A stretch of DNA of 64,000 nt from the IMG/VR virus record IMGVR_UViG_3300037067_023910. One strand, given 5' to 3'. The notes beneath the pieces were generated by a model. That model ran no database searches, was not told where the DNA came from, and saw only the letters and a list, made by a program, of their open reading frames with translations. Below are positions 3,963-58,954 of the stretch, in pieces (the first letter of the stretch is position 1; each line of letters starts with the position of its first letter). The translations under genes were made by a program, and so were the position numbers. The DNA comes from an uncultured virus (IMG/VR IMGVR_UViG_3300037067_023910). Its lineage: Duplodnaviria > Heunggongvirae > Uroviricota > Caudoviricetes.

Positions 3963-3974
3963 AAGTTCACCTGG

Positions 3975-4277: not shown

Positions 4278-4588
4278 GGGTGGTTTTGTCTCCGGTTGTT
4301 AAAAAAAATATTTAAAATCGTGAGGCCAATAAAGATCCCGATAACGACGGTCAGAATAAACATCAACATGTTTTCAGCTGCGGTCATCGACTCAATATAG
4401 ACCAATTGGAGCCAAGGGCTGACCCCTGACCGTTCTCCGAAAAAAAGAATGACCATAAAAAAAAACCCGACTACCATCGCCGCCCCTAAATTCATTAAGA
4501 TTTGGCCGGGTTGTAGCTGGGCTTTTGTCCTTTCCCCAAAAGGTTGGGGAGTAAGGCCTTTTCGAGTGTGAGTTTGTTTTTTTGGCAT
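4274..4588 (-). CDS. Small two-TM protein with basic N-terminus
   Basis: 104 aa, two hydrophobic helices. Confidence 0.7.
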   Translation of the reverse strand: MPKKQTHTRKGLTPQPFGERTKAQLQPGQILMNLGAAMVVGFFFMVILFFGERSGVSPWLQLVYIESMTAAENMLMFILTVVIGIFIGLTILNIFFNNRRQNHP

Positions 4589-7773: not shown

Positions 7774-7782
7774 CGTTGAGTT

Positions 7783-12764: not shown

Positions 12765-14317
12765 TATGCCACCTTCCTCGGGTTTAACCGCTGGGTGGTT
12801 TGTTCTACCACTTTTCGTTTAGAGATGTTCACGAAAATCACGATCCCAATGACGGCGACAATGGCAATAATGATGTAGATTTTATATTCGGCGAGAAAGT
12901 CAAACCACTCGCCGGGATCCCACCATGGATCACCTGGAGGCTCTGAGATCGAAGCATTTACATCACCCCCGACAACATCATAATAATAATCATCCCCGCC
13001 TTGGTCTGGAGGGGTTATTATATCTTGGCCGGGGGTTGTTGGGGTATAGGTCATCTCATCAACTGCGGTGAAAAGGTCCATCTCGACATAGCATTTTTGT
13101 TTGAAATAATAGTTCGTGATCCCGTAGCCCACACACCACGGAATATCAGTGGTGGTCACGGTCGATGATGCTTTACACGACCCTTGCCCGGGGTATGAAA
13201 CATCAATTTTAATGGTCCCGCGGGTCAAGCTCACAGTCTTAAGATATTTATCAAACCGTCCCCCGATATTACAGCGATAGGTCCCGCTCAATGTCGAGGT
13301 CGGGTTTTGGTTGTTGCCGGCCAGTTGGGTGTTGGTGGATGTCGCCATGGTATTATGAGACCACACTTTTGCTAAATCATACCCGGACGCAGCTGACCAA
13401 CCATAGTTTCCTTCATTTAATACATCTTCGATCGTTTTGGCGGACCCTTCATACGTCTCATAACTATCGATAATGTTTCCGTAGGAATCGTCTTTAATGA
13501 CTTTAGCAGACCCCGACTGAACTGTGCCTGCTGCAAAATGAGGGTCATTTTTAGTGATTGTCCCCACTTCTGCCGGGACTTCTGACGTAGACATTTTGAT
13601 GAGTTGGGAATCGATGCCCACCATTTTATATTGTATGCCGTCAATTATCACGGACTGGCCCTGGTAAGGAACATTAAAGCTGGCCGTTAACCCAATATCA
13701 AAAGTTCCCCCAATGGGGATTTTTTGAATCGCCGCGGTATCAATCGTATATTCAGAATAGGTAATATACAGAGTCTCATCGTAATCGTCTTCTTCGCCAC
13801 AGAGACTTCCAGAAAGACACGAAGCTTCATCAATTTTAAGCCACCATTGATTTTTTTGAGGATAACTTGGTTTTTGGAAAGAATCGGTGTTGTAGGTCGA
13901 ATACCCACAGATCCAATACGACATTTTCACGTGGTATTTATAGAGTTTATTTCCGGCCCCATCGACCCCAACGGCCCCTTCTTTGGCAAAATCAATAAAG
14001 GCGGCGGCCCCCACATCGATCCGGATATTTGGATCACTGGGTTGAGTCGCGGTAATCGAAAAATATTTGTCCCGGAGGTTAGCCCAATTGATGGAATCGA
14101 CCATTGTCGTGGTGATCGTATCTTTATTTTCAGGTAAGGTCGTCCCGGCCTCCGGTGTTGTGCCCGGGGTGGTCGGCGTGGTTGGAGCTGGTGGTGGAGG
14201 TGTTGTGCCAGGTAAGGTGATCGTTGGAAGAGTGAATGCTGCTGTAAATTCCATGCTCACTATGATACTACCGAGCATTGCGATAATGAAAAGAGAAAAA
14301 ATCGGAGTTCGCTTCAC
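12764..14317 (-). CDS. Secreted protein with Pro/Thr linker and C-terminal membrane anchor (candidate envelope protein)
   Basis: Signal peptide, TPPPPAPTTPTTPG linker, Cys-containing ectodomain, TM IYIIIAIVAVIGIVIFV, basic tail. Confidence 0.8.
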   Translation of the reverse strand: MKRTPIFSLFIIAMLGSIIVSMEFTAAFTLPTITLPGTTPPPPAPTTPTTPGTTPEAGTTLPENKDTITTTMVDSINWANLRDKYFSITATQPSDPNIRIDVGAAAFIDFAKEGAVGVDGAGNKLYKYHVKMSYWICGYSTYNTDSFQKPSYPQKNQWWLKIDEASCLSGSLCGEEDDYDETLYITYSEYTIDTAAIQKIPIGGTFDIGLTASFNVPYQGQSVIIDGIQYKMVGIDSQLIKMSTSEVPAEVGTITKNDPHFAAGTVQSGSAKVIKDDSYGNIIDSYETYEGSAKTIEDVLNEGNYGWSAASGYDLAKVWSHNTMATSTNTQLAGNNQNPTSTLSGTYRCNIGGRFDKYLKTVSLTRGTIKIDVSYPGQGSCKASSTVTTTDIPWCVGYGITNYYFKQKCYVEMDLFTAVDEMTYTPTTPGQDIITPPDQGGDDYYYDVVGGDVNASISEPPGDPWWDPGEWFDFLAEYKIYIIIAIVAVIGIVIFVNISKRKVVEQTTQRLNPRKVA

Positions 14318-14331
14318 TGCGAGCCCCCCTT

Positions 14332-15213
14332 TTAGGTTTGCACATCGTATTCAGTTAAGGTCGTGTCCAAATTGCCATAAAAGACATTTAACTCGACCCC
14401 TTCGAATGTGTCACCTAATCCGCTGCTCAAGACTATGTCCACCGTTAAAGGTGCTGCATTGGAAATGTCTGTTGCAAAATAAAAATAGGTTACATTGCCA
14501 TCTACGACTTCATCGTAAGCATCGGCACATGAAACATAGCTCGACGCTGAAGTATCGTTGACTTCAACCCCAATCACGACACAATCATAGAGTAAATTGT
14601 CAACATCGGAGTTTTCAAAATCATAATTATAAGAATCCCAGCCTTCCGGGTAATCTACATCCGTTGTGGTCGGGATTACAGTAATCGTCCATTCGTCATC
14701 GGTCGTGGACGCAAATGTGCTGCCCCCGCCATCGGTTTCATAGGCAATAATGTTAATGTCTGCGGATTGATTCGCTAAATAAACGAGATTTTCACCAGGG
14801 ACTGGGAATACCCATTTACTGGAATACCCTGTCGCGGTAATTTCGAATACTTGGATCAAGTCAGCATCGATATCAAAAGTATCTTCCGCATCGATGGCTT
14901 CAATGGTCTCTGCGGTAAAGTCTGCATAAGTGAGATCGGCGATCTCTTCGGCAGTCATTTCACTAATGTCGACGGTATATTCGGTAGCATTAAAATCTTC
15001 AATTTCAGTGCCACTAAATAGCTCCGTCGCATTAAAACTATAATAATCATAGGTCGGTACGACCGCAGGCTCAACGGGAGCCGGGGTCCACCACCCTAAG
15101 GAATTCCCCAAATAATACCCCCCGATGAAGACCAAGGCAATTGCCATGATCGGAATCACGGGTGATATTTGTCGGGCGGAAGTCGCTTTGCGAGGGGTAG
15201 ATGGTTGACGCAT
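14332..15213 (-). CDS. Highly acidic N-anchored extracellular protein, first gene of the structural operon (candidate major virion protein)
   Basis: Likely start MRQPST at 15213 after AAAGGA (track uses 15264); basic N-terminus, TM, D/E/T-rich ectodomain. Confidence 0.75.
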   Translation of the reverse strand: MRQPSTPRKATSARQISPVIPIMAIALVFIGGYYLGNSLGWWTPAPVEPAVVPTYDYYSFNATELFSGTEIEDFNATEYTVDISEMTAEEIADLTYADFTAETIEAIDAEDTFDIDADLIQVFEITATGYSSKWVFPVPGENLVYLANQSADINIIAYETDGGGSTFASTTDDEWTITVIPTTTDVDYPEGWDSYNYDFENSDVDNLLYDCVVIGVEVNDTSASSYVSCADAYDEVVDGNVTYFYFATDISNAAPLTVDIVLSSGLGDTFEGVELNVFYGNLDTTLTEYDVQT

Positions 15214-15260
15214 TCGATCAAATCCTTTTTCGGTTTTTTGGTGGCTTACGCCACATGAAC

Positions 15261-15373
15261 ACATTTTTGATCAAAAATGTCCCGAAAAAGCAGAAAAAAT
15301 TGATCAAAAATGTTCATTATTTCAGATAACGGGCGGCCTTATATAAACGCGTGTGGCTACAATGTGGCTACAA
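15261..15373 (-). promoter_or_regulatory. Putative promoter and operators of the structural operon
   Basis: Minus-strand TTTATATAA at 15339-15347; perfect 20-bp palindrome ACATTTTTGATCAAAAATGT at 15261-15280 with a partial copy near 15300-15313; tandem TGTGGCTACAA x2 at 15352-15373. Confidence 0.65.
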
Positions 15374-15766: not shown

Positions 15767-15854
15767 AAAAATCCCTGGAATTAATGGATGGAAAAATTAT
15801 ATATGAGAAGATGGAAAAATTGAAAAAAGGATGATCTTGTCAAGTCTACAATGC

Positions 15855-16200
15855 GTGAACAAGTGAACAACCAGTGAACAAACATTGATCATCGTTTTTC
15901 TTCAATCTGGTGGCAAAAACTTGTCCAGAATGGAGAAAAAGGGTGAAGTGAACAAGTGAACAAAATTTGGGGATCTACGCCTATATATCACATGTGACAT
16001 GTGATGTATTATATGTATTACTACATATGTGTCATTCTATGTTTTCCGTTACACGTGTAACCATATATATCCTAGAACTTGTTCACTTGTTCACTTGTAA
16101 AATATATTTATATATATATATGATCTAGAGGGAAAAAAGGCCATTTAATCGGTGAACGGAAGTTGTTCACTTGGCGTTCACTTGCCCAACTTTTGTTCAC
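15855..16200. repeat. Putative replication origin: converging GTGAACAA repeats around an AT-rich palindromic core
   Basis: GTGAACAA at 15855, 15863, 15874, 15948, 15956; TTGTTCAC at 16079, 16087, 16163, 16193; palindromes TCACATGTGA (15988) and GTTACACGTGTAAC (16048); AT run 16099-16121; directly downstream of the helicase gene. Confidence 0.75.
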
Positions 16201-16304
16201 CAATCTTGTTAGATCTACTTTCTCTGACCAAATGACTAATTGATGAAAAAATCTTAAATCTTGTTTTTTCTCTTCTGGTGATGAAATTGTGTTTAGATTG
16301 GAGT

Positions 16305-19300
16305 TTATTGCTTTCTCGGGGGGTGGGCCAGTTTATATTCGCCGGGGTTGGGGGTAAATAATGTCCCGTCCTTGACCCATTCACCCAAAGCATTTTTAAT
16401 AAAATCGGGTGTCACCCCTTCGGTCGCAGAAAGTGTCTCCCAGAGGTCTTCAAATGTAATCCCTTCTTTGGGAGCCGCAAGCTGCAAATCCCCGATCTTT
16501 CTTTGGACGACATTTAATAAATTCCGCTTTTTCGTCGCCACATTCATAATATCTATTTCGTCAATTTTTTGATTCGACACCCCAGAGGGGGCCTGGCAAT
16601 TAATCACGTCCACGATAATATTATTTTCGCCCTTGGAAGAATTGGAAGATTGAGGTGTTGACACTTTATTTTCGGTTTCCTTAGTCACATAAAGCCCGAC
16701 TTCACCTTGGGAAAAATACAAATTATTATCCGCATCATCAAAAGATTTCCAATCTTCAAAAGGCACCACGACGACCCGCATTCGTTTGAATCGTTTGACC
16801 CCATTCAAAACATAAGCCGTGTTAAAGGAGCCTTCTAAAGTATGGGGAAACGTGGCGATCAGGCGAGATTGAAACATTTTTGAGGTCCATTTAATTTTGC
16901 CATAGCCTTCATATTGAAATTGAATTTCCCGGATATTATTGATATTCCAAGCCCACCCGCGTTTCAAAAGGTCATTATCAGCCTTATCTTTATAGGTTGC
17001 AGTGCCCAATGGTGTTTTGATCCAAGTCGTTTCATCTTGGCGGATCGCTTCAAGCCCATTTAAGGTTAAAACCCCCTCCTTTAGGTAGGAACTTTCCCGG
17101 ATCCGGCCCCGTAAGATTTGGTCTTGCATTAAGGAAAATAAGTCATCGGAAATATAGGACGCGGATTGGTCTAAAATCGGGAGTAAGGGTGCTAAGTCTA
17201 CAGTGATATTGAAGATTTCTTTCATCAACAAAGCCCCAAACCCAAAGATTTGATAGGTCTTATATTTCCGGTTTTTCCGGAGTTTACATAACACAGGAGG
17301 CATGACAATGGACTTTATTTTTGCCCGAATTGTTTCCATGGTCCAATCTTTGGTATGTTCATATAAGAGCCACATTAACCCTCCGACTGGGAATGAATCG
17401 ACGGCATCGCCCCATTCTGGGCGTTCAATCAATTCATCAATAAAGAAAATAATGGTCCGGGTCACAAAATTTGGGTCACAAAACCAGTCAGGGAGGTCAT
17501 TACACGTCAAAGCCAGGGCGGCTAAATAGGCTTTTTGGACAGAAGCGAATTGTTTATTCTCTCCCGCCCCTTTTTTGAACATATATTGGTCTAACGTCAA
17601 ATAAGACTTCAAGACGTCCAAGAATTTGGCGTCAGTATGGGTGATGTCATCTAACCCAACGGGAAAGGTGCTGGAAGCAATATAGGACTCAAATTGGGAC
17701 AAATGTTCCACCGTGCTGGAATTAATAAAAGAAGACCCTTTTTCATGCTTGAGTCCAAACATGACACATAGGATCATTTCAATGAAGGGTGACTTGCCAA
17801 ATTCTCCGGGCCCCTGTAATACCAACAAAGACATCAGCTTAGTGATATTACGGATGACATACGCAAAAGGTGCCTGGATGCCCCAACAAAATAACAATTC
17901 TTTATATTTAATCCCCGTCAAATCATAAATTTTGCGGAATTTTTCAATGACTACGGCTTTATCAAAAGTCTTTTTCATGATCTTATCGACCAGGAAAAAT
18001 AAATCACAGCCCGTTTGTTCTTGGAGCAAGATAATGGCATTGGAAGGTAAACTCCACCCTGACTCAATAAACCCTAACCGGGTTTCAACTAACCCCGTCT
18101 CGTCGGGAAATTGTTCAAAATATTGTTGGAGGGGGTGATTTGCAACGTTAATTGACCGGGACGCCACGGCACATTCCGAATGGATTTTGGCCTTTAAACT
18201 ATCAAACGTCACATCATAAAAGGAATTCACCGTTGTATTTATCCGAATATACCCAATATATCGCCATTGAGAATTTGGGCCTTGCTTGACTTGATACCGG
18301 TGTTCAATTTTCAGTTCAGTCCACCCATACAGTTTTTGGGTGACAGGGTGTTCTTGGACCAGTTTGTCCACAAAAATACCCTTTTCGGGGATTAAATACA
18401 CCCGGGAATCATGTTCCGAAGTAATTTGGTAAGGATAGGTCCCGATGACCGCGATAGAATTAGCTTCAAGGCAATAATCACAAAAACAAGATTCGGCCTT
18501 TTTTCGATTTAATGCTTGGCGGGGCCGGAGGGTAATTATCCCAATAATCGCGACGATGTCCCCGGGTTTCGTGTAGTTGATCAAATAGTCTTGCACTTCG
18601 ACCAACATAATTTCCGGAAAGCCATTTTCGGTCGGATTGACATTTAAACAACTATCATGGACATAGAGTTTTTGAGAAGGGACCTGGACTAAATCTTTTT
18701 GAGTTAATTTCCAATCCCGCGTATTTCGACACGAGCTGTTGGAACATTCCCGAGGGACCACTAAATCTTCTTCATCGGTCTGCAACTCTTTCATAATATT
18801 TCCACAGACCGGGCATTCAAAAGACGCTTCTGTGAGGCGGGGCCGGGCTTTTCCTTGTAAGGTCACAATTCCATTGATTTGGATTAATGTGCCATTTTTG
18901 GACGTCGACTGGAGGTCTTTAATGTGTTTGGCCAATGTGAGGTCATTTTTGGGGGCCGAAAAGACAGGTCGAATTTTTTCCGGGCCATCCTTTTGGCCCC
19001 CGGCGGAAGCCATCATGAGATCAGTAATGACCACTTCGAATTCATGAAAGGCCATTTTGGGGTCTTCGAGGAGATAGGCATAAAGGACCGGATCATATTG
19101 GAGTATATCTTCCAAATCAATCGGAATAAGGGGGTCGGTTTGAGAATAGGCTAAGGCGATCCTTTGTTGATATTTAAAAATGACCTTTTTTTCAATGGTC
19201 GGGGGGTCTGTCGAATTATCGCCCGCTGGTTTGGCGACCTCGACTGTCTCTTCATAATTTTTCAGAAATTCTTCAATAATAGTATAGGGATTATTAGGGG

Positions 19301-19343
19301 TCGTATATGGGGTTTCGACGTCATGAGGTTTTTCACTGGTCAT
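16305..19343 (-). CDS. Chimeric replicative helicase: MCM N-terminal/OB/Zn domain, SF3/DUF927-like ATPase, MCM-type C-terminal winged helix
   Basis: IDLEDILQYDPVL, FECPVCGN..CSNSSC, KPGDIVAIIGI, LEANSI (MCM N-terminus); GPGEFGKS, VGLDD, LTCN, FVTR (ATPase); GTLFTPNPGEYKL (MCM wH). Confidence 0.8.
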   Translation of the reverse strand: MTSEKPHDVETPYTTPNNPYTIIEEFLKNYEETVEVAKPAGDNSTDPPTIEKKVIFKYQQRIALAYSQTDPLIPIDLEDILQYDPVLYAYLLEDPKMAFHEFEVVITDLMMASAGGQKDGPEKIRPVFSAPKNDLTLAKHIKDLQSTSKNGTLIQINGIVTLQGKARPRLTEASFECPVCGNIMKELQTDEEDLVVPRECSNSSCRNTRDWKLTQKDLVQVPSQKLYVHDSCLNVNPTENGFPEIMLVEVQDYLINYTKPGDIVAIIGIITLRPRQALNRKKAESCFCDYCLEANSIAVIGTYPYQITSEHDSRVYLIPEKGIFVDKLVQEHPVTQKLYGWTELKIEHRYQVKQGPNSQWRYIGYIRINTTVNSFYDVTFDSLKAKIHSECAVASRSINVANHPLQQYFEQFPDETGLVETRLGFIESGWSLPSNAIILLQEQTGCDLFFLVDKIMKKTFDKAVVIEKFRKIYDLTGIKYKELLFCWGIQAPFAYVIRNITKLMSLLVLQGPGEFGKSPFIEMILCVMFGLKHEKGSSFINSSTVEHLSQFESYIASSTFPVGLDDITHTDAKFLDVLKSYLTLDQYMFKKGAGENKQFASVQKAYLAALALTCNDLPDWFCDPNFVTRTIIFFIDELIERPEWGDAVDSFPVGGLMWLLYEHTKDWTMETIRAKIKSIVMPPVLCKLRKNRKYKTYQIFGFGALLMKEIFNITVDLAPLLPILDQSASYISDDLFSLMQDQILRGRIRESSYLKEGVLTLNGLEAIRQDETTWIKTPLGTATYKDKADNDLLKRGWAWNINNIREIQFQYEGYGKIKWTSKMFQSRLIATFPHTLEGSFNTAYVLNGVKRFKRMRVVVVPFEDWKSFDDADNNLYFSQGEVGLYVTKETENKVSTPQSSNSSKGENNIIVDVINCQAPSGVSNQKIDEIDIMNVATKKRNLLNVVQRKIGDLQLAAPKEGITFEDLWETLSATEGVTPDFIKNALGEWVKDGTLFTPNPGEYKLAHPPRKQ

Positions 19344-19423
19344 AATTTTTTACCTGGTTTTTGGTCTATTGCGTAATTGGTCGCAAAAAAAGGTTCAAAA
19401 AATGAATGATTGAGAGATTCACA

Positions 19424-19846
19424 TCATTTGATATGTTTTTCGCATGTGAAATGTCCGTTCACTAAAAAGACCGGGCTCTGGTTGCACCGCGTCCGGGGGG
19501 TCTCCCGAGTTTCACAGACCGGGATTAAATTAGTCGATTTCGACCGGGTAATGGTATTTCGCAAAATCGTGAGGATTTTATGCAGAGTCCGCATAGTGCC
19601 TTCCTTATTGTTCATTCCCAGTGTGGTCTTGGCCGAGTCCGCCAAAGCTTCAAGGGTCGTCAATTGATTCCACCCTAACTTCGGTGTTCGTTTTACTACA
19701 TGGACGATGTGGTGGGCAATAGGCTCGGTCAGTCCACAGACCACACAAATAAAATAGGTGTGGTGCCCCAAGGGGTTTTTGTCCCAATACTGGCTTTGGA
19801 CTGCGTGGCAGTAGGGGCATTCTATGACAACTTGTTTAGGTTGCAT
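19424..19846 (-). CDS. Zn-finger protein
   Basis: CPYC...CVVC. Confidence 0.6.
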   Translation of the reverse strand: MQPKQVVIECPYCHAVQSQYWDKNPLGHHTYFICVVCGLTEPIAHHIVHVVKRTPKLGWNQLTTLEALADSAKTTLGMNNKEGTMRTLHKILTILRNTITRSKSTNLIPVCETRETPRTRCNQSPVFLVNGHFTCEKHIK

Positions 19847-20202
19847 AGTATTCGCTCCATTAAAACGCCCCTTTCGGGTGGTTCGGGCACTGAAGATTCG
19901 GGTTCACTCATATAGATACATAGACCTGAATTCGGGATTTTAATATATAATTGGTCACCGCGGAATTCGTGTTCGGCCCGCCAGCATTTGAAGCATTTAT
20001 GGTTTAGAAGTTCCCACCACGACCCGGGAGTTAGAGGGTGTGTAATCACAAAGAATTCAGAATTACTGGTCTGTTTACATTGCTGAAATCGGCATTCATC
20101 ACAACCAACGAAAGTAGGGTCGTCGCGGTTTTCACAATAATCGCAGCGTTCATCATCGGCGAGTTTATCGGCATTGAGTTGAAAATTATTGAATCGGTCC
20201 AT
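19822..20202 (-). CDS. Cys-rich Zn-finger protein
   Basis: CDYC, CDEC, CFKC. Confidence 0.6.
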   Translation of the reverse strand: MDRFNNFQLNADKLADDERCDYCENRDDPTFVGCDECRFQQCKQTSNSEFFVITHPLTPGSWWELLNHKCFKCWRAEHEFRGDQLYIKIPNSGLCIYMSEPESSVPEPPERGVLMERILCNLNKLS

Positions 20203-20450
20203 AATGGTCCCTCTTGGGCTTATTTTGTTTTTCGATAAGATCTATATCGGCTTGCCAATCTATTTCCATAAGTTCTTCATCTTGCCAAGCTTGAAATTCT
20301 CGGGCATATTCTTCCTCGACTTGTAAAATTACTTTGGCCGATTGTCCCAAAGCATAAATCACCCCCATTAATTCTAAATTTTTGACATAAGGGGGTTGAC
20401 AAAACGCTTGAAACAATGCCCGGCACTCGCCAGTGGTCAATGACACAAGA

Positions 20451-20885
20451 TTAAGCCTCCGCGTGGGCAGCATGATAAAAGTCAAAATCACAGATCCATG
20501 CCCGTTGGTCATGCTTCCGAAACGGGACGGGGGGGATCTGTTCCACATGGCTTAACCAGATTAAGGTTAGATATTGGACCTCCCGTTTCGATTCCAGATA
20601 GACTTCGTCAATACAAATTTGGCGGCGGTATTCCGACAACATCTCAAAGGCCCAGTGGCCTTCATAATACTCGACTCGATCGGCCATAGCTTTCAGAGAA
20701 ATAGTCGGGGCCCCAGGTTTTTTGAAATAAATCGTGTCATTGGCAAATAACCGGAAGGTCTTTGGGGTCCGAGGGTAAGGGGCGTATCTTTTCAGTGATG
20801 CCCGGGACTCGATTGGTTTTGTTCCGTTTTTTACGAAATTATACCACGGGTTCTGTAGAATTGCTAAGTGGTCCATGGGGTTCAT
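20451..20885 (-). CDS. ASCH/PUA-like domain protein
   Basis: HLAILQNPWYNFVKNGTKPIESR matches the ASCH GxKxxExR motif. Confidence 0.75.
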   Translation of the reverse strand: MNPMDHLAILQNPWYNFVKNGTKPIESRASLKRYAPYPRTPKTFRLFANDTIYFKKPGAPTISLKAMADRVEYYEGHWAFEMLSEYRRQICIDEVYLESKREVQYLTLIWLSHVEQIPPVPFRKHDQRAWICDFDFYHAAHAEA

Positions 20886-21241
20886 CTCCCTCGGCGGGTT
20901 TGGTGGGCAAAGGTCGCCTTGGTAAGACTATAATTGGCACATGCGTTACAAAAGCCGCAAAAATACCCAAAGAGGGGGCATTGCATAGTTAAGCATGTCC
21001 GGCAGAGATTTTCGCCTCCACAAATGGCAGTTTGAGTTGGTGTTTCCATTTTTATTCGCTTTATTTGTGTGTGGGTATAAAGCCCCCGGAGGGACATCGT
21101 TAAAAAAATGAGATTTAAGACTAAATAGGGCCATTGGGCCGTGGCGGCAAAATAGACCACATTAAAACTATTGGCCACAGTATAACAAACATTGACCCGG
21201 GTGAGGTCACAGATCGGCTTCGCGGTTTCACGGGCCCCCAC
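20882..21241 (-). CDS. Small membrane protein with Cys-rich tail (start uncertain)
   Basis: Hydrophobic helices, CRTC..C..CGFCNAC; the frame stays open and hydrophobic upstream to about 21298. Confidence 0.55.
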   Translation of the reverse strand: MGARETAKPICDLTRVNVCYTVANSFNVVYFAATAQWPYLVLNLIFLTMSLRGLYTHTQIKRIKMETPTQTAICGGENLCRTCLTMQCPLFGYFCGFCNACANYSLTKATFAHQTRRGR

Positions 21242-21266
21242 AATGGAGAAGGCCGTAAAAACCCAA

Positions 21267-21734
21267 CTAAGCCACTGGAGTAGGTAACTCAGGGGGCATC
21301 ACCCGGACATTAGGGTCTGCAATTGCAAATTGAGCATAGCAGTCATCGAAAAAATCGACCTCAAGGGCTAAGGCAGCAAATTTGGCTAAGACTTGCGTCT
21401 TATAAGTGACCATTTGGGCCAGAAATTCCGCCGTTTTGGCTTTACTGTTCACAATGTCTAACATTTCTTTGGTCGACAAGGCAAAGTCCCGGCAGATAAT
21501 ATGGTCGCGGGGGATCGCAAAATAACTGCCAATCTGGGCCTTTACGTCAGGGTGGCGGGTCGTGCAAATATAGACCAATTCCCCCGCGTTGCGGAGTTCC
21601 TTAAAATAACTCAATAAAGGCAATTCATGTTCAACATCTAAGATAAGGTATAAATTGGCCTTATCCGTTTCGGGGTTACAATGGACGAGGGTGTCGTCCA
21701 TATCAAAGACATATACTTTTTTTGAAGGCTTCAT
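21267..21734 (-). CDS. HAD-superfamily phosphatase
   Basis: YVFDMDDTL (motif I), CTTR (II), K, FFDD (IV); likely start MKPSKK at 21734. Confidence 0.8.
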   Translation of the reverse strand: MKPSKKVYVFDMDDTLVHCNPETDKANLYLILDVEHELPLLSYFKELRNAGELVYICTTRHPDVKAQIGSYFAIPRDHIICRDFALSTKEMLDIVNSKAKTAEFLAQMVTYKTQVLAKFAALALEVDFFDDCYAQFAIADPNVRVMPPELPTPVA

Positions 21735-21797
21735 AGGTAATCCATTCCAGAAATGTGAAAAGAAACGAAAAAAACGACAAATTCTAAGCGTCACAGC

Positions 21798-22196
21798 TTA
21801 GGTTTTTTTTAAAATTTTTAACTCAGGGATCCCGGGGATTGTTGTTGGAGTGGTAGTAATCCGGTAAGTCACCCATCGGTCGGGGGTGGGATTCCCCCCC
21901 CGTTGGTAAAAGAGCATACCTTTGACCATGGTAATTTGGAAGGGTATTTTCTCACCCGGGCTGAGAGCCGGGAGTTGAATGGAAAATTCTTCTTCCCCCG
22001 CAGCTAAGGCTTGTCTGGCCCGTAAATTAATTTGTTTTAAATTGTCAAACTCACTTCGGGTTAGTTGAATAGAAGAAGGCTTTTTTTGCGGCCCTTGGTG
22101 ACCCGCCCGGCCTTTAAACGATGGTTTTTGGTGTAATTTCGCTTGTTGCTTGGCCCGTTCCCTGGCCCGGAGTTTTTCTAACTGGCGTTTTTTCAT
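21798..22196 (-). CDS. Basic hypothetical protein
   Basis: 132-aa ORF overlapping the TFB stop codon. Confidence 0.6.
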   Translation of the reverse strand: MKKRQLEKLRARERAKQQAKLHQKPSFKGRAGHQGPQKKPSSIQLTRSEFDNLKQINLRARQALAAGEEEFSIQLPALSPGEKIPFQITMVKGMLFYQRGGNPTPDRWVTYRITTTPTTIPGIPELKILKKT

Positions 22197-23062
22197 AAGG
22201 CTTCCTCTTTCGTTTTTAACCCCTTCAACCCTTGGGGTGGAGCGAACTTCTTAAGGTGGGGTCTAAGGTAGAGATAAAATATGTTCCGAAGACTGAACTC
22301 CTTCACATGGGGGACGAAACTGGCCAACGTGAGCCGCTTCGGTATCTTTAACCATGCCGCCGCAATTCTGTCTGCGGAATAGATAATTGCAAACGCTAAA
22401 TTTCGGGGGTTAACCCCTTTATATTTCGGCAGCACCGTTAATAGGGCATACGCATATTTTCGCACCAATTCCGTATATGGGAGCGACACGGTTTCGACCG
22501 AAAAAAAATGCCCTAATGCGTTTTCGAGATAGTCTTTGACGGTAACAGTCTTAAATTTAGGCATGTGGTCGCGAATAATACGACGAACAGTTGATAGCTT
22601 AAAGTTATGCCCCGTAGTTTTGTATGCCGCTTGGATATGGTCCCAAGTGATGGCCGTATATTTCAGTTCTCGGACTGCCACCCACAACGCCGCGGCCCCA
22701 AATTGGACCATCCAATTTTTTTGGGGGTGGCTGTGGTGGTATAAGTAAATCGCTCGGTCGCGGACGGCTGCTGGGACTTCGAGGAGTTTACAAATTTGGG
22801 CGATCACCAATACCGGGCGGCGAGCTGCTCGGTAGGGGTTGACCACATTATTATCGATCTTTGCTAACCGCCGCCATTTTTGGCTTGAGAGATAATTTAA
22901 ATCCGCCAAGGCGAAGTGAAATGTATTGTCTGCCCGAATCGGGCCGTAATAACTGTATGTAAACTCTTTCTGATAGGGGCGAATAAATTCTTGTTCCCCA
23001 ACGGTGCCACATTGCGTGCACACCTCGAACCCGCTATCTATTATATTGGTATGATTGCACAT
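22193..23062 (-). CDS. tfb: Transcription factor B (TFIIB) homologue 1
   Basis: Zn ribbon CNH...CTQCG, linker KWRRL, two cyclin repeats (AAALWVAVR; GVNPRNLAFAIIY), terminal HTH EFSLRN. Confidence 0.85.
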   Translation of the reverse strand: MCNHTNIIDSGFEVCTQCGTVGEQEFIRPYQKEFTYSYYGPIRADNTFHFALADLNYLSSQKWRRLAKIDNNVVNPYRAARRPVLVIAQICKLLEVPAAVRDRAIYLYHHSHPQKNWMVQFGAAALWVAVRELKYTAITWDHIQAAYKTTGHNFKLSTVRRIIRDHMPKFKTVTVKDYLENALGHFFSVETVSLPYTELVRKYAYALLTVLPKYKGVNPRNLAFAIIYSADRIAAAWLKIPKRLTLASFVPHVKEFSLRNIFYLYLRPHLKKFAPPQGLKGLKTKEEAL

Positions 23063-23088
23063 GTTTTATTTGTCCTGGTCTGTTGTTT

Positions 23089-23379
23089 TCATTTTATATT
23101 TTTCTTGTTTTCTTTTTCTTTCCATTCGGGGTGACATTCAGCAATATGGGCCATAATTCCCGCATGAAGGTCTTGAAATTCGATCGCTTTATCACATTTC
23201 AGACAAAACAAATCATCAATATCGAGGATCTCATCATTAAAAGCTTTCGGAATGTCCCATTCACCCTTTCGTAAAATAGGGTGAATATCACGGGTAATTG
23301 TGACTAAAAAATTCTGTTGAATTATTCTGGCATATTTCATATTTGACCACATTCCACTGCGGTGGCAGTTTTTTATCAA
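23089..23379 (-). CDS. C2H2-like Zn-finger protein
   Basis: CLKC...HIAECH. Confidence 0.55.
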   Translation of the reverse strand: MIKNCHRSGMWSNMKYARIIQQNFLVTITRDIHPILRKGEWDIPKAFNDEILDIDDLFCLKCDKAIEFQDLHAGIMAHIAECHPEWKEKENKKNIK

Positions 23380-23569
23380 ATTTTAGATATAAATGTCATT
23401 ATGGGCGTTCACTGTATTATCACCAGGGGCGGCTAATTGTTCTAATAATTCCTTTTTCGAGACTTCAATTTCATATCGCTTGACCCCAATAAGGATACAA
23501 ACGATCGCTTGTTGATCTTTGAATGCAATGAACAAATGTTTCTCTTCATTTTTCTTTTTTTTTGCCAAA

Positions 23570-24241
23570 TTATTTGTTCTCCTTGCTGGGGATTAAAAAA
23601 GTAGTTAAAGCTTTGAATTTCTTCCATTTTTGGGCTTCTCGCTGCCGTTTATTTTCCGCAGCTTGTTTCGACCATTGTTGAAAGATCTCTTGGTGAGATT
23701 CCGCGTGGTGGTGGCATGGTTTGCAGAGAATTTGTAAATAGTTTAAATCCCAACAGAGATCATAATTTTCGATTGAAAGTAGCGAGACTGGTTTGATATG
23801 GTGAATTTGCACATCTTTATAATACAGAAATTGCCCACACCCTTCACACTGCACAAAATATGAATCGAATGGCCATTCGGGGGATGAATTGATTTTTTCT
23901 GAGACGGTTTCTCTCCAATTGGTTTTTCTCCATTTATCCACAATCACCATTCGACAACTTGGAGAACAAGTCCACATTCCGGATGATCGCTTGCCGTCTT
24001 TTCTTAACATTATTTTTCCACAATTTCGACATACTCGCCGTTTATCGCTCCCATATAAATTATAGACATCAATTGGAATACTCCGCGTCGATAGCCAATC
24101 GTTAATGATCCATTTGTGATAATATTCGGTGTTGTGTTCGTCACATAATAACCGCATTGTTTTCAAATCGGAATTGACCTCCGATGGAAAGAAACTTCGG
24201 CAGATTAGACAATGCTTAAAATACTGGTCCCCTTCGGTCAT
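23570..24241 (-). CDS. HNH endonuclease with N-terminal Zn fingers
   Basis: CEGCG...IHHIKPV...NYLQILCKPCHH. Confidence 0.85.
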   Translation of the reverse strand: MTEGDQYFKHCLICRSFFPSEVNSDLKTMRLLCDEHNTEYYHKWIINDWLSTRSIPIDVYNLYGSDKRRVCRNCGKIMLRKDGKRSSGMWTCSPSCRMVIVDKWRKTNWRETVSEKINSSPEWPFDSYFVQCEGCGQFLYYKDVQIHHIKPVSLLSIENYDLCWDLNYLQILCKPCHHHAESHQEIFQQWSKQAAENKRQREAQKWKKFKALTTFLIPSKENK

Positions 24242-24243
24242 GA

Positions 24244-24513
24244 TTATTCGCCTATTTCAGGTAACTTAAAATCGATCACTTGAGCAATTGGTTCCCGGGT
24301 CTTGGTCTTGCAGCTAAAATACCCTTGGCCTTTTTCTTCGACAAATCGGACGAGACACAGTTTACATAAATGCCACGTTTGCCACCGGCGAACCCCGGAT
24401 TTATAATGCACCACTTGCACTTTTACGGTTCCATACACTTCATTTTTACAACGCGTGATGTGGTGGTCTGTATCTTCATGGACCATTCGGCATGGACGCT
24501 TCATAAGTATCAC
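24244..24513 (-). CDS. Small Cys/His-rich protein
   Basis: 89 aa, CKLC motif, GGTGA RBS. Confidence 0.55.
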   Translation of the reverse strand: MILMKRPCRMVHEDTDHHITRCKNEVYGTVKVQVVHYKSGVRRWQTWHLCKLCLVRFVEEKGQGYFSCKTKTREPIAQVIDFKLPEIGE

Positions 24514-24517
24514 CTCA

Positions 24518-24814
24518 TCATTCTATGGGGGTATAGGGGAGTAACCCCAACCCTTCTTCACAAGCCCTACAAGGTCCGCCTTTTCTTCGGGCGACCTTTA
24601 AATACTCTTTGTATGTAATCACGGAAGAATGTTGAACGTCATAAAGCATTGCTTTCATGATTGCAATCCAATCTTTTTTGGACTCGGCTTCAAAGGGGTC
24701 TGAAAAGGCCCCAATTCCTTGCTTATCATAGTGGACTTCCATGACTTTGTATTTGCCCTTAGGAAATCGCACTAACCGGTAATTCCAATGGGTTAGGTTA
24801 CTCAATTTTCTCAC
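24518..24814 (-). CDS. Conserved viral hypothetical protein
   Basis: WNYRLV...EVHYD motif recalled from phage hypothetical proteins. Confidence 0.55.
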   Translation of the reverse strand: MRKLSNLTHWNYRLVRFPKGKYKVMEVHYDKQGIGAFSDPFEAESKKDWIAIMKAMLYDVQHSSVITYKEYLKVARRKGGPCRACEEGLGLLPYTPIE

Positions 24815-25200
24815 TGTCCTACATCAAATCGGACGATACAGTCCAAACACAGCCATTGATCATTATACCATTCATCGGCTTCTTCGCCGCATTCTTCACA
24901 TGCATGATATGGCAGAAATTGGGCTTCATAGTCCTTCAGTTTTTGTTCTTCTTCACTCATCATCTTCTCTCAATCTTCCTTATTGACGTGAAACAACAAT
25001 TTCACGTCGTTAGGTATTTTTTTTCAAGATATACATTTTTTCACTACACGTGCAAATCGGGTATTGGATATGTACACTATGCGGCTCATGTTTGGTGCAT
25101 TCACAACAATGGGTGAGCGGTTCTAACTTCTTGGCTACTTGTTCCATATAGGCGTCCAAAATAGATACAAAAGTTTCGTCTTCAGTTTTTGTTCCTTTAA

Positions 25201-25695
25201 TTATTCGACTTTTTTGATTTTTGTCCATGCTATATCTTCCTCTTCGCTATTCCAATCTTCAAATGCAGATTCTGAAAGTCGACTCCATTCATCTATGGAA
25301 TCGTTCTCATCATCTTTCATATATTCATCAATCGGCGTGTTAAAATCAGTGGGAACATCCGTTTCTTTTTCAGTAGGTTCATACCAATGGTCGCCCATGC
25401 GTTTGGAGGGGTCAACTATAAGCCTCACGCGGTCAATTATTTCTTTGAGTTGGGGGCTGACTTTGGGATAGGCTTGAATAATATATAAATCGACGGTTAG
25501 GTCGAGAGAAGCAATTGCTTCTTCGATTAGGTCAGAAATGGAAGGGCCTATCGCCATTATGTTCAAATAACTATTTCTTGCGATAAGGAATGGCTTATCG
25601 TAGAATTCGCTGTCATCGCTCTCGACCGAAAGGTATATATCAGCCAATAAAGGGGGGTATTCTTTAGACGTTAGTTTGATTTCCATAGTGTTCAC
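25201..25695 (-). CDS. Antitoxin-like protein (HicB-like segment plus DUF2281-type acidic tail)
   Basis: AIGPSISDLIEEAIASL; C-terminal LSESAFEDWNSEEEDIAW. Confidence 0.45.
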   Translation of the reverse strand: MNTMEIKLTSKEYPPLLADIYLSVESDDSEFYDKPFLIARNSYLNIMAIGPSISDLIEEAIASLDLTVDLYIIQAYPKVSPQLKEIIDRVRLIVDPSKRMGDHWYEPTEKETDVPTDFNTPIDEYMKDDENDSIDEWSRLSESAFEDWNSEEEDIAWTKIKKVE

Positions 25696-25739
25696 TTTTT
25701 TTGATTATACATTGATAAATTGAGAAATTAAGAAAAAAA

Positions 25740-26144
25740 TCATTTATTGTTTGTTTCTTCTTTGATTTGTCCTTCCTTCTTGACTAATTCTTTTAAATGA
25801 TTAAAGGCCCTCAAAGGATCGGCTTTGATATGTTTCAAAAATTTATAATGACGTTTACTTGCTGCGATTAAGGGGTAATCTATAGTGGTAATTGGCCTTC
25901 GCTCCATTTGAGTCAATGACCAATAAGACCGCCCGAGGTTCCTTTCATATCGCTGGACACAAGGGCCACAGACATAATCTTCAAATGGTGTCGCTACATC
26001 ATGATCATAATCATATTCAGAGAGATATGCGACAAAAGTATAGGCCCAATAGGCTTCATTCTTTTTACAGAAAGGACATTTCATTTTTTCGAGCCCCCTA
26101 TAACCCCGTGACCTTCCAACCGAAAGCTTGACAAATGCCTTCAA
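25740..26144 (-). CDS. Zn-finger protein
   Basis: CPFC...CGPC; true start probably MKCPF. Confidence 0.6.
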   Translation of the reverse strand: MKAFVKLSVGRSRGYRGLEKMKCPFCKKNEAYWAYTFVAYLSEYDYDHDVATPFEDYVCGPCVQRYERNLGRSYWSLTQMERRPITTIDYPLIAASKRHYKFLKHIKADPLRAFNHLKELVKKEGQIKEETNNK

Positions 26145-45008: not shown

Positions 45009-45944
45009 TCAATAGGGGAAATATTTATCGTAGAACTCCAACCGGGCCTTCCACGACCGGAGGATCTTCAAGTAATGGTCGGCGTTGACGGACTTGGGTT
45101 TCTGATTTAATAATAATGCCCTGACCCCTTCGTCTAACCCTTGTTCCATCCACCGCGAATTGAGGGCGTCCCGGAACAAATGGGGGTGGGCTTCATTCCG
45201 CCACTTCCGGAGTTGCTTCCGAATGACCCCGGTCGCTAAGGGAAAGAGAAAGTTTTCCTTGGGGCTCAGTTGCTGATATTGCATGACATAGCCTTTCAAG
45301 GTATTTACGAACGACAAGGGGATTGGGTACATATTAGACCCCGTCGTCGCTTTGGTCTGTTTTTCTTGGGTCCAAATAAACCGGTTTTCAAAATCAATCT
45401 TATCAATTTCAATATTGACTACACCCCCGACCCGCATCCCTGTGTAGGCTAAGAGGGCAAAAATGAGGTAATATTGCTCGTTGCGGGTGCGAAAGAAGTT
45501 CAAACAATCGGTGACATCGGCTTTGGAAAAGGGTTCTTCATTCCGCCGGGAACCGGTGTCCCGCATGGGGAGAAAGGCGGGTTCAAACACCACTTCATAA
45601 TTGTATTTGATGGTGTCCCCAACGGCAATGAGGGGCCGGATAATCCAATAAATGAACTGTTTAACGGTGGTGCGGTATTTATTTTTGACCGACAGTTGCC
45701 CTTGGACATGGTCGTTCACATATTGAAAATATTCGCGGAATTGTAACGGGGTCACGTCTAAAATCGAGTGAATGCCTGGGTAATGGGCCACCGACCAGTC
45801 ATAAAAGAACTGGAGTTGAAAGGTCTTCCGGGCCCGGGTGCCGTGATTTTGTTCTGACGAGAGAAAGGTCTTGTAGAGGGCCTGGTCACCGTCAAAAAAG
45901 GGGCGATCATTGGTGTTTCCACCGTCGTTGGTTATTTTGCTCAA
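45009..45944 (-). CDS. int: Tyrosine recombinase/integrase
   Basis: LLAYTGMRVG (R), EK, HPHLFR (HxxR), LLNQ, DHYL (Y). Confidence 0.9.
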   Translation of the reverse strand: MSKITNDGGNTNDRPFFDGDQALYKTFLSSEQNHGTRARKTFQLQFFYDWSVAHYPGIHSILDVTPLQFREYFQYVNDHVQGQLSVKNKYRTTVKQFIYWIIRPLIAVGDTIKYNYEVVFEPAFLPMRDTGSRRNEEPFSKADVTDCLNFFRTRNEQYYLIFALLAYTGMRVGGVVNIEIDKIDFENRFIWTQEKQTKATTGSNMYPIPLSFVNTLKGYVMQYQQLSPKENFLFPLATGVIRKQLRKWRNEAHPHLFRDALNSRWMEQGLDEGVRALLLNQKPKSVNADHYLKILRSWKARLEFYDKYFPY

Positions 45945-52183: not shown

Positions 52184-52213
52184 CTGGTCTCAATTCGTTC
52201 TGAGGATAAAAAA

Positions 52214-53443: not shown

Positions 53444-53515
53444 AAAAATCACTTGGAATTCGATAAAAATAGAAAAACGAAAAAAATGGAAACACAAAAA
53501 AAGCGTTAGAACACA

Positions 53516-57967: not shown

Positions 57968-58954
57968 TCATCTCGAAGTTATTAATTGATTGATAGGGGT
58001 CGGGGTGCCCATTGGTGATGGGGCGACCCGCAGCATTTTTTCGACCAATAGTTTGATCTGTTTCCATTGGTCTCTGATGGAATAATCTGCCATTCCCACG
58101 AATTGTGGAAAATAATCGAGTTTGATGACCCGTTTTTGGCCCTTTAAGACACTTAAAATATAATCTGTCGCATAACAAATTCCCGCCGCTAAGAGCCGGG
58201 GGTTAACGGCTTTGTGGTAGACTCGTTTTAATCGGGCAGATAACCGGAATGCGACTTGCTCTAAATCGTTGAAATATTGCCCGGGGTCGAGGTTTTTCCA
58301 CCGAAACTGATCCTCAGGAATTTGTTTTAATTTTCCAATGATCCCCGGGAGGTGGTCGTCGACTTGGAGATGTGGGACCGGGAGCCCCACCATGGCTTTT
58401 TGCTGGTTTAAAATGGTGGAATGGAGTGACCCTTTTTCTGTCTTCCGCGAGGAATGGAACGAATTATACAAGGCAAACAAATCGGGGAGGGCGACATAAA
58501 AATGGCCTTCCCTGAGGGCAGTGAGTAAGAACACGACCATTTGGACCGACAAATTCGCCCCGGGCCCATGTTTATGGCGGGTAAAAAATAAAAAGGTCGC
58601 TCGGGCGGTAATGGCTTTGGGGACATTTAACGCCCGTGTTAAGTCATTTAAAACCCGGAGTTGAAGGTAGTGGGGTTGATAATTTTGATTCGTGTTGACA
58701 GCTTCAAGCCGTTTCCATTTTCCAGGCAAATAGGTTTGTCTAAAGTCAAAATAATGAAGGCTTTTAGATAAGTATGAGGTGTATGACATTTTGGTCGGGG
58801 GAATGGCCAAAAACGCCACATTGGTATTATACGTCCGCGATTGGTCTTCATTCCTCTCGTTGGGGACATAAATTAAGTCCGAACCATCATTGACCAGCCC
58901 ACACTCTCGACAGACTTCGAAGCCGTCCGCTATGATATATTTATGGTCGCACAT
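57968..58954 (-). CDS. tfb: Transcription factor B (TFIIB) homologue 2
   Basis: Zn ribbon CDH...CRECG, KWKRL linker, LNVPKAITARA, AVNPRLLAAGICY, terminal HTH DYSIRDQWKQI. Confidence 0.85.
   Translation of the reverse strand: MCDHKYIIADGFEVCRECGLVNDGSDLIYVPNERNEDQSRTYNTNVAFLAIPPTKMSYTSYLSKSLHYFDFRQTYLPGKWKRLEAVNTNQNYQPHYLQLRVLNDLTRALNVPKAITARATFLFFTRHKHGPGANLSVQMVVFLLTALREGHFYVALPDLFALYNSFHSSRKTEKGSLHSTILNQQKAMVGLPVPHLQVDDHLPGIIGKLKQIPEDQFRWKNLDPGQYFNDLEQVAFRLSARLKRVYHKAVNPRLLAAGICYATDYILSVLKGQKRVIKLDYFPQFVGMADYSIRDQWKQIKLLVEKMLRVAPSPMGTPTPINQLITSR

Follow-up and report, generated by a model that had tools for sequence, protein, structure and literature searches.

The DNA analysed here, called the window, is a stretch of 64,000 nucleotides whose gene TFB1 encodes a diverged protein of the TFB/TFIIB fold. 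The features on which the analysis draws are the following.

22193..23062, minus strand: TFB1, diverged TFB/TFIIB-fold protein of 289 aa (ORF, fold match, hhalign, profile bit scores)
22991..23062, minus strand: Zn ribbon variant, TFB1 residues 1-24, with C2, H4, C15 and C18 and the first Cys absent (sequence and predicted strands)
22895..22990, minus strand: degenerate B-reader/B-linker-strand region, residues 25-56 (pLDDT, conserved columns, profile alignment)
22553..22894, minus strand: B-linker-helix remnant (KWRRLAK) and cyclin repeat 1, residues 57-170 (predicted helices, Pfam)
22244..22552, minus strand: cyclin repeat 2 with G-x-N-P (216-219) and C-terminal HTH, residues 171-273 (structural alignment)
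22271..22306, minus strand: putative BRE-recognition helix VKEFSLRNIFYL, residues 253-264 (aligned to canonical VTEVTVRNRYKD)
21798..22196, minus strand: 132-aa ORF of no known family, its ATG overlapping the TFB1 stop (ATGA)
23089..23379, minus strand: 96-aa Zn-finger-like ORF ending 26 nt upstream of TFB1 (sequence)
16305..19343, minus strand: MCM-like helicase of 1012 aa at the end of the co-directional run that contains TFB1 (Pfam MCM_OB 7e-18, MCM_N 8e-6; phrog_10371 DNA helicase)
15340..15347, minus strand: TTTATATA box, taken for a promoter in an earlier note on this DNA, in the 151-nt gap upstream of gene 14332-15264
45009..45944, minus strand: tyrosine integrase (Pfam Phage_integrase 6e-10, Archaeal phage integrase 4e-6; phrog_1)
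57968..58954, minus strand: TFB2, second paralogue (P0020, 328 aa; hmmsearch, BLASTP, model)

The TFB1 ORF starts with ATG, with an in-frame TAA two codons before it, and the same protein (P0021, 100% identical) was called in an independent assembly; an alternative gene call starts at V14 (P0001, 276 aa). Over positions 19000-26000 the window DNA is identical to contigs of two runs, each from a different study, and its source may be one of these studies.

The architecture that the earlier note gave to TFB1, an N-terminal ribbon, two cyclin repeats and a C-terminal HTH, is borne out by the predicted fold and by hhalign against 12 canonical Asgard TFBs (probability 98%, E 2e-13), whose 249 aligned columns span ribbon to HTH. 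The cyclin folds, on which that note had staked its reading, are predicted as two tandem repeats matching 1d3u_B and 1ais_B, in a core with pLDDT mostly 80-95 (AF2). The model superposes on the Pyrococcus woesei TFB core 1d3u_B with Z 16.2 and an rmsd of 3.4 Å over 185 aligned positions (residues 71-275; VIA-align) and on 1ais_B with Z 16.1 (VIA-align; TMt 0.70 in Foldseek), and the top Foldseek matches are full-length TFIIB chains of pre-initiation complexes (7o4i_M, E 4.5e-7). The Zn ribbon, described earlier as CxH...CxxC, is present as C2-x-H4...C15-x-x-C18-G19, and AF2 builds it from three short strands (6-9, 12-15 and 21-24; block pLDDT ~57-66). Aligned to the canonical CxxC knuckle, its first Cys column is empty because TFB1 begins at the second Cys; the metal ligands predicted from the sequence are C2, H4, C15 and C18. 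Taken by itself, the sequence signal for a TFB is weak: the Pfam TFIIB repeat (PF00382) matches residues 82-133 with E 0.0036 and 17.7 bits, below the 23.6-bit gathering cut-off, while Zn_Ribbon_TF (PF08271) and the PDB sequence search gave no match at E ≤ 10. Conserved residues occur in the linker helix and repeat 1 (R65, K68, Y108, R131, T139) and in repeat 2 (G216, P219, Y228). TFB1 keeps 20/65 canonical conserved columns overall and 6/22 in cyclin repeat 1, and its contact with TBP is therefore not assured.

The B-reader is missing, as had been noted: neither a GPEWRAF-type helix nor an HDKGLST-type strand occurs in the sequence, and of 12 reader and linker-strand columns with a conservation of at least 85% across 18 canonical TFBs, a single one is kept in TFB1. 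Residues 30-76 align to neither the canonical nor the non-canonical family profile (the latter described below), residues 25-55 have a pLDDT below 50, and the whole region has ~25 residues fewer than its counterpart in each family. The linker listed in the earlier note survives in part, as the B-linker-helix remnant KWRRLAK, which matches canonical RLRKWQRR, but the rest of it is absent; AF2 places a helix at residues 57-94, followed by further helices. The reported divergence of the BRE-recognition helix also stands, with KEFSLRNIF in place of canonical TEVTVRNRY. Here E255, S257 (for T) and R259 align to the canonical invariant E298, T300 and R302, giving the conserved E-x-[TS]-x-R recognition-helix pattern, whereas F256, I261 and F262 occupy positions where the canonical protein has V299, R304 and Y305 (P0019 numbering).

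The name "TFB 1" implied a second copy, and TFB2 does exist: an hmmsearch of 502 window ORFs with the A1 profile detects it at E 3.2e-40. It has no Pfam TFIIB match at E ≤ 1, and its model matches TFIIB and 1ais_B (TMt 0.75), thus the same fold as TFB1. The two proteins share 25% identity (BLASTP, E 3e-16), unevenly distributed: 13/24 positions in the ribbon, 11/52 in the reader/linker region, 25/94 and 23/75 in the two cyclin repeats, and 5/28 in the HTH. The ribbon, with its common MCxH...GFEVCxxCG motif, is the best-conserved part, and the recognition helices differ. To judge from the sequences, a kept ribbon with a diverged HTH would fit selection that preserves a polymerase contact common to both proteins while their DNA reading diverges.

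The claim that TFB1 is encoded by an element agrees with the gene content of the window. All 80 scanned ORFs of at least 100 aa lie on the minus strand. Two of them encode DNA methylases, and others an integrase, the MCM-like helicase, an ERF recombinase and an HNH nuclease; the window has no tRNA genes, and no ribosomal or other housekeeping families are among its Pfam matches. The tyrosine integrase marks it as a mobile element. Capsid, portal and terminase genes gave no PHROGs match in 81 window ORFs, so the element may be either a virus or a plasmid; the window is probably a mobile element or virus with a host among the Asgard archaea. The tight co-directional run around TFB1 holds an HNH nuclease, a kinase/phosphatase-like ORF and the MCM-like helicase. 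In the same run, the 132-aa ORF has no Pfam or PHROG match, and the 96-aa Zn-finger-like ORF is one of many small Cys-rich ORFs. The window contains the TTTATATA 8-mer 7 times vs 3.5 expected (8/100 shuffles reach 7), which is no enrichment, and no distinct promoter or BRE motif could be derived de novo from 28 intergenic gaps. A sigma-70 scan, inapplicable to archaea, was used for a palindrome only. A search of the ESM Atlas gave no usable match for the ORFs at 14332-15264 and 12764-14317.

Both window proteins score best against a non-canonical side-family of Asgard TFBs. TFB1 reaches 54.0 bits (E 1.2e-17) and TFB2 55.4 bits (E 4.3e-18) against an HMM of 61 Asgard sequences from which the window proteins were left out, compared with 16.1 and 10.6 bits against canonical TFBs (alignment A3, loci L001-L080, for the non-canonical family and A5 for the canonical Asgard TFBs; P0003, a protein of 2029 aa with eight matched stretches and a different architecture, was excluded from all alignments). 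Like TFB1 and TFB2, the side-family has the same overall architecture without GPEWRAF, and an HTH of the E-[YF]-S-[IVL]-R-[DN] type. However, its cellular members are ~335 aa long and have a CxxC first knuckle and a VDGLGSYID motif, features not shared by the window proteins, neither of which has the [VI]-D-G-L-G-S-x-I motif after the ribbon and which are only ~25% identical to them. The missing B-reader had been presented as peculiar to the element. Its absence is real, but GPEWR is absent from the side-family as well, so the loss looks largely inherited.

A search of 301 genomes with TFB1 gave a match in 146, and exactly one match in 143 of these. In 38/69 Asgard loci the side-family gene has a T2SSE-type ATPase neighbour, at a median of ~0.7 kb downstream, and a tailed-virus contig with HK97-type capsid and portal genes (L081) also carries a side-family member (206 bits vs 52). 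Candidate identities for the side-family are arCOG05559 and arCOG01981 (PMC4858521). A quick tree puts both window proteins outside the canonical clade (support 100*), on long branches of 1.95 and 3.74 changes per column. AU tests reject neither TFB1 and TFB2 as one clade (p 0.245) nor the window proteins and canonical TFBs as one clade (p 0.118, lnL difference 19.8), and the pair may hence derive either from one capture and a duplication or from two captures. A word-based homologue search matched TFB1 and the MCM-like protein each only to itself, and scanning IMG/VR with each of TFB1 and TFB2 singly turned up no relative.

The best explanation, to which we give a probability of about one half, is that TFB1 is a working, stripped-down alternative initiation factor, which would bring host RNA polymerase to element promoters but open DNA weakly; its complete TFB architecture fits such a recruiting factor. 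TFB2 is best explained as a stripped-down alternative initiation factor acting in parallel. The two cyclin repeats of TFB1 would bind the host TBP-TATA complex and the N-terminal ribbon would dock the host RNA polymerase, while promoter opening and start-site setting would be weak and reliant on TFE, easily melted promoters or another factor. Weak opening should be expected by analogy with P. furiosus TFB2, for which it is reported. As TFB1 and TFB2 share the docking ribbon and differ in the recognition helix, they may serve two classes of element promoters. Their nearest cellular relatives form a family of unclear role, often encoded beside a secretion-type ATPase gene, so that their original function may have been something other than general initiation. 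The sequence and model data show the fold, the order of the domains, the absent motifs, the second paralogue, the higher side-family scores and the setting on a mobile element; TFB binding to TBP, DNA and RNAP, as well as promoter preference, any timing and the host, we infer.

The stripped-down reader could also point to a competitive inhibitor or host shut-off factor. Such a TFB1 would occupy TBP-promoter complexes or the polymerase dock and, being without reader and linker, could not open DNA, thereby blocking initiation that depends on host TFB. TFB1 has none of the B-reader and linker-strand motifs, mutations in the reader and linker are reported to disrupt promoter opening and activity of P. 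furiosus TFB1 (PMC13502027), and viral inhibition has a precedent in the protein RIP, described as a global inhibitor of host RNA polymerase (PMC9501531). We nevertheless regard inhibition as unlikely. The element, in which no RNA polymerase gene was detected, itself depends on host transcription; a pure blocker needs neither all three modules nor two paralogues that conserve the ribbon; and a divergent reader does not abolish the function of P. furiosus TFB2, according to the available account (PMC13502027).

Doubtful to a similar degree is a specialised co-factor, which would act together with the canonical TFB of the host, in the way of the trans-activator Sulfolobus TFB3 (PMC7289017), or would keep the role of the ATPase-linked side-family. 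The better scores of both proteins against that family and its frequent T2SSE-type neighbour favour this reading, as does the suggestion that TFIIB homologues encoded in T4P-like operons play a separate role related to transcription (PMC4858521). However, the T2SSE ATPase family PF00437 has no match among 80 window ORFs at E ≤ 0.001, and the DGLGS motif of the side-family is absent from the window proteins. Sulfolobus TFB3 is moreover truncated, without a complete cyclin core, unlike TFB1 with its two cyclin repeats and HTH. The very long branches, the sub-threshold Pfam score and the shortened reader region might instead be signs that TFB1 is a captured host gene now decaying or without function. 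This we consider very improbable, given that the 289-aa frame is intact and its fold well predicted, that two paralogues at 25% overall identity keep the ribbon motif, and that TFB1 sits in a tightly packed gene run with an ATGA overlap with the next ORF.

The reading of TFB1 as a recruiting factor can be extended, speculatively and at rather long odds, to a reader-less initiation system. In it, the TFB pair, with one docking ribbon in common and different BRE-reading helices, would direct host RNA polymerase in turn to each of two element promoter classes, for instance replication/early and late, and both proteins would descend from the Asgard-wide non-canonical TFB family. If this is true, the pair would be an archaeal counterpart of the phage sigma-factor cascade, and working it out would also reveal what the non-canonical Asgard family does. 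To our knowledge, no archaeal virus or plasmid encodes an RNA polymerase, and the way in which such elements capture the host enzyme is mostly unexplained; element-borne TFBs are the most direct candidates for it. A natural pair with the same ribbon, different recognition helices and no B-reader in either member offers a clean system for studying TFB promoter choice, and is also suited to asking how much of the reader and linker initiation needs.

Compared with canonical archaeal TFBs (1AIS/1D3U; Asgard alignment A5), TFB1 has the same ribbon, two cyclin repeats and HTH but not the B-reader helix, the linker strand, the first Cys or the RGRSI loop. The functional analogue for a factor that works and opens promoters poorly, likened by description, is P. 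furiosus TFB2, which is reported to support transcription at lower activity, to be deficient in promoter opening, and to be partly rescued by pre-melted templates or TFE-alpha (PMC13502027). It is, however, a cellular paralogue of a euryarchaeon, whereas TFB1 is element-borne. Among predicted viral proteins, the top structural match to TFB1 is the rudivirus vTFB of Saccharolobus solfataricus rod-shaped virus 1 (BFVD A0A6M3VXQ0; E 8.4e-7, TMt 0.56), which is only 16% identical and belongs to a different host phylum and virus type; it is described as a virus-borne TFB of putative function (PMC9501531). Closer to the present element, TFB homologues have already been published for Asgard viruses and capsid-less Asgard MGEs, among them WyrdV1, 10H_0, 7H_42, Ga0114923_10000127, Ga0209976_10000148, JinchiV1, PBV300 and the baiyanviruses, and the viral TFBs were proposed to recruit the host transcription machinery (10.1101/2021.07.29.453957; PMC13700489). 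The accessible parts of these accounts, compared by description, make no mention of the B-reader state, of affinity to the side-family or of two TFB genes per element. What they do describe resembles the window closely: a TFB-fold gene on an Asgard-associated element of 44-85 kb and, for the MGEs, DNA methylases, nucleases and numerous small Zn-finger proteins but no capsid gene that can be recognised. TFB1 and TFB2 are filed as further members of these already known element-borne TFBs.

By sequence alone, the TFB signal of TFB1, a diverged TFB-fold protein, is weak. The Pfam TFIIB repeat matches residues 82-133 only (E 0.0036; 17.7 bits, below the 23.6-bit cut-off), an NCBIfam scan returned no meaningful family, a PDB sequence search no chain at E ≤ 10, a PHROG search no match, and a word-indexed homologue search only the protein itself. 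A phmmer search run exhaustively over 1.84 billion representatives found 15 proteins at E ≤ 0.001, the best non-self match being P0002 (E 1.1e-11, 26% identity); 12 of the 13 matches scanned contain a TFIIB repeat and/or a TFIIB-type Zn ribbon at E ≤ 0.01, and P0003 (2029 aa) was left out of the alignments because its architecture differs. The AlphaFold2 model, computed from a 14-row alignment of phmmer relatives, has a mean pLDDT of 76.4 and a pTM of 0.62; confidence is low only over residues 25-55 and 73-76. In a Foldseek search its top matches are TFIIB chains from yeast and human pre-initiation complexes (7o4i_M, E 4.5e-7), and the Pyrococcus woesei TFB core, 1ais_B, matches with a TMt of 0.70. 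VIA-align superposes model residues 71-275 on the same core in 1d3u_B (Z 16.2, rmsd 3.4 Å, 185 aligned) and gives Z 16.1 for 1ais_B, followed by cyclins at Z of about 12.5-13, which cover a single domain or superpose with a high rmsd. An hhalign comparison of TFB1, TFB2 (its paralogue in the window) and P0002 with 12 canonical TFBs spans 249 columns from ribbon to HTH (98% probability, E 2e-13). The architecture of ribbon, cyclin repeats and HTH proposed in the earlier note is real.

The two genes are:
22193-23062, minus strand: TFB1, 289 aa
57968-58954, minus strand: TFB2 (P0020), 328 aa

The TFB1 ATG lies two codons after an in-frame TAA, so no earlier start is possible. The start is supported by the N-terminus, MCNHTNIIDSGFEVCTQCG, which recurs nearly identically in TFB2 and resembles the ribbon of P0002, the nearest outside relative. 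An independent assembly encodes the same 289-aa product (P0021, 100% identical), and one alternative gene call begins at V14 (P0001, 276 aa). Shine-Dalgarno motifs resembling GGTGA or GAAGTGA stand 6-12 nt before many window start codons (e.g. 53935, 33208, 32634 and 27869); a weak AGGA alone, 13-16 nt upstream, precedes the TFB1 ATG. Small Cys-rich ORFs with CxxC pairs and C2H2-like spacing surround the gene (19822-26144, minus strand; e.g. 23089-23379), and a comparable set adjoins a TFB-like gene on a metagenome contig, L133.

TFB2 was found by searching the profile of the first alignment against 502 stop-to-stop window ORFs (E 3.2e-40). It shares 25% identity with TFB1 (E 3e-16), and a Pfam scan of it gave no TFIIB match at E ≤ 1. 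In its model (pLDDT 70.5) TFIIB is again the top structural match, with a TMt of 0.75 for 1ais_B. Identity between the paralogues is highest in the ribbon (13/24), intermediate in the cyclin repeats (25/94 and 23/75) and lowest in the HTH (5/28).

Both proteins were compared by column with 18 canonical TFBs (P0019 and 17 encoded by five Asgard genomes) and 61 members of a non-canonical Asgard family. At a conservation of at least 85%, the canonical TFBs have 65 columns in common; 20 of these are kept in TFB1 and 18 in TFB2.

Canonical conserved columns kept by the window proteins
Ribbon: 7 columns; TFB1 keeps 5, TFB2 keeps 6
Reader plus linker strand: 12 columns; TFB1 keeps 1, TFB2 keeps 1
Linker helix: 3 columns; TFB1 keeps 2, TFB2 keeps 1
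Cyclin 1: 22 columns; TFB1 keeps 6, TFB2 keeps 4
Cyclin 2: 9 columns; TFB1 keeps 3, TFB2 keeps 4
HTH: 12 columns; TFB1 keeps 3, TFB2 keeps 2

The canonical consensus reads DEGPEWRAF...HDKGLSTIID...RLRKWQRR. TFB1 lacks both of the first two motifs, in agreement with the claim that it has no GPEWR B-reader. The linker that had been described is present in part: KWRRLAK stands for RLRKWQRR, but the linker-strand motif is gone. Residues 30-76 align to neither the canonical nor the non-canonical profile, and about 82 residues were counted between the CxxCG knuckle and the first cyclin helix, versus about 106-107 in the consensus sequences. The first ribbon Cys is also absent, as the chain starts with the second one; the fourth metal ligand may be His4, and the C-x-H first knuckle is common to TFB1, TFB2, P0007 and P0015. 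The recognition helix is diverged, as the earlier note had observed: E255, S257 and R259 correspond to the canonical E, T and R, and the canonical R and Y have become I261 and F262.

The absence of the reader helix looks inherited, given that the consensus of the non-canonical family, which contains VDGLGSYID, also lacks GPEWRAF; in the window proteins the loss goes further, to the linker-strand motif and the first ribbon Cys. On profiles built without them, TFB1 scores 54.0 bits (non-canonical) versus 16.1 (canonical), and TFB2 55.4 versus 10.6. The phylogeny gives a less clear answer. A clade with support of 100 unites the canonical TFBs, the window proteins fall outside it among further orphans on long branches, and TFB1 groups with P0002 (support 89); AU tests reject neither TFB1 and TFB2 as one clade (p 0.245) nor the window proteins and canonical TFBs as one clade (p 0.118).

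A profile search recovered a named relative, P0017, from a Promethearchaeota MAG, and the canonical P0019. Scanning an alignment of five such relatives against one genome per species yielded 185 relatives and 80 retained loci, of which 60 are Asgard-named (Promethearchaeota, Hermod-, Thor-, Odin-, Jord-, Frey-, Baldr-, Borr-, Sif-, Hel- and Hodarchaeota), a share that is no proof of Asgard restriction, the search patterns having been drawn from Asgard-like sequences; 19 are labelled merely "archaeon" or "uncultured archaeon", and one, on a 2.1-kb contig, Thermoplasmatota. Each of five Asgard genomes encodes several canonical TFBs (7-22 repeat-level PF00382 matches), and four also show weak matches, the one checked (G001) being the non-canonical gene at L026. 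Many Asgard genomes hold a paralogue without GPEWR, usually one each: TFB1 matches 146 of 301 genomes of the phylum, 143 of them exactly once. The best of these matches is only 33% identical (E 7e-11), so none of the 301 showed an integrated copy of the element.

In 38 of 69 Asgard loci, the non-canonical gene is followed, at a median distance of 0.7 kb downstream, by a gene of roughly 685 aa, whose representative contains a T2SSE secretion-ATPase domain (E 1.4e-15); other frequent neighbours are Cdc6 (25 loci) and an Arf-like GTPase (23 loci). Makarova et al. described TFIIB homologues within T4P-like operons, which these loci recall, as far as the available text of the sources goes (PMC4858521; PMC13705601). 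A Pfam scan of 80 window ORFs found no T2SSE-type ATPase at E ≤ 0.001. The window encodes a MoxR-type AAA ATPase and VWA protein pair (50681-53497, minus strand; phrog_19600, 263 bits; phrog_24053, 234 bits), and both protein types are listed as T4P-associated in the accessible part of one source (PMC4858521). A further side-family member (206 bits non-canonical versus 52 canonical) occurs on L081, an IMG/VR contig of 20972 bases that is a tailed-virus fragment with capsid and portal genes:
3480-4556, same strand as the portal gene: HK97-type capsid gene
6712-8199, same strand as the capsid gene: portal gene
9887-10993, opposite strand: non-canonical TFB-like gene, 368 aa

No promoter motif beyond single TATA-like boxes was found in the window. 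Two direct copies and an overlapping inverted copy of the 14-mer ACATTTTTGATCAA lie between a TTTATATA box (15340-15347, minus strand) and the ATG at 15264; this arrangement (15261-15347) is operator-like, and allowing up to two mismatches gives 4 occurrences in the window versus 2.5 expected, which is no enrichment. A 538-nt non-coding gap (15767-16304) adjoins the MCM-like gene. AGTGAACA occurs 10 times in the window versus 1.6 expected, a count reached in 0 of 100 shuffles, and seven copies lie in this gap:
15862-15962, plus strand: four copies
16080-16171, minus strand: three copies
The copies flank an AT-rich run and a palindrome with a 12-bp stem (15983-16009), and the gap looks like a replication origin.

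In a TFB, the ribbon is the docking site for RNA polymerase and the core is the TBP-DNA-binding part, whose second repeat recognises the BRE. The conserved ribbon and diverged recognition helices of the paralogues suggest that both make the same polymerase contact and that each has a DNA specificity of its own. The earlier note had offered redirection of host polymerase or dominant-negative inhibition. As inhibitors, the proteins would occupy promoter or polymerase; they could instead be co-factors of a host TFB, act in the role of the side-family, or be relics. Reader and linker extend into the polymerase and have a stabilising effect on the template strand, according to the available part of one study (PMC7289017). 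P. furiosus TFB2, highly divergent in both, still works at lower activity, which TFE-alpha or pre-melted DNA partly restores, as stated in the accessible text (PMC13502027). By analogy with it, TFB1 and TFB2 are read here as putative alternative initiation factors that would recruit host polymerase and open promoters weakly.

The minus strand carries all 80 scanned window ORFs of at least 100 aa. Other features are:
16305-19343, minus strand: MCM-like helicase
23570-24241, minus strand: HNH nuclease
45009-45944, minus strand: tyrosine integrase
55874-56779, minus strand: ERF recombinase
Pfam/PHROG matches: two DNA methylases, an RHH protein, NADAR and DUF1643 proteins, and the MoxR-VWA pair

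The MCM-like protein (1012 aa) matches MCM_N and MCM_OB, with no MCM/AAA ATPase Pfam match at E ≤ 0.001 and no relative in a word-based homologue search. PHROG and other searches of window ORFs found no capsid, portal or terminase, and a search of the window found no tRNA gene. The "enigmatic MGEs" of Asgard archaea measure 44-85 kb and encode a TFB, many Zn-finger proteins, methylases and nucleases, without capsid genes, in the accessible portion of the report (10.1101/2021.07.29.453957). The 81-kb element contig, with its TFBs, methylases and nuclease and no capsid found, is like them; this likeness and the TFB affinities are the two grounds on which the host is probably an Asgard archaeon. 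TFB genes of putative function have already been published on rudiviruses, Asgard viruses and Asgard MGEs; the available parts of that literature make no mention of reader state, of a relationship with the non-canonical family or of a pair of TFBs on one element, and published genome maps may show more. To these known element-borne TFBs, the window makes two modest additions: a paralogue pair and an apparent ancestry in the side-family.
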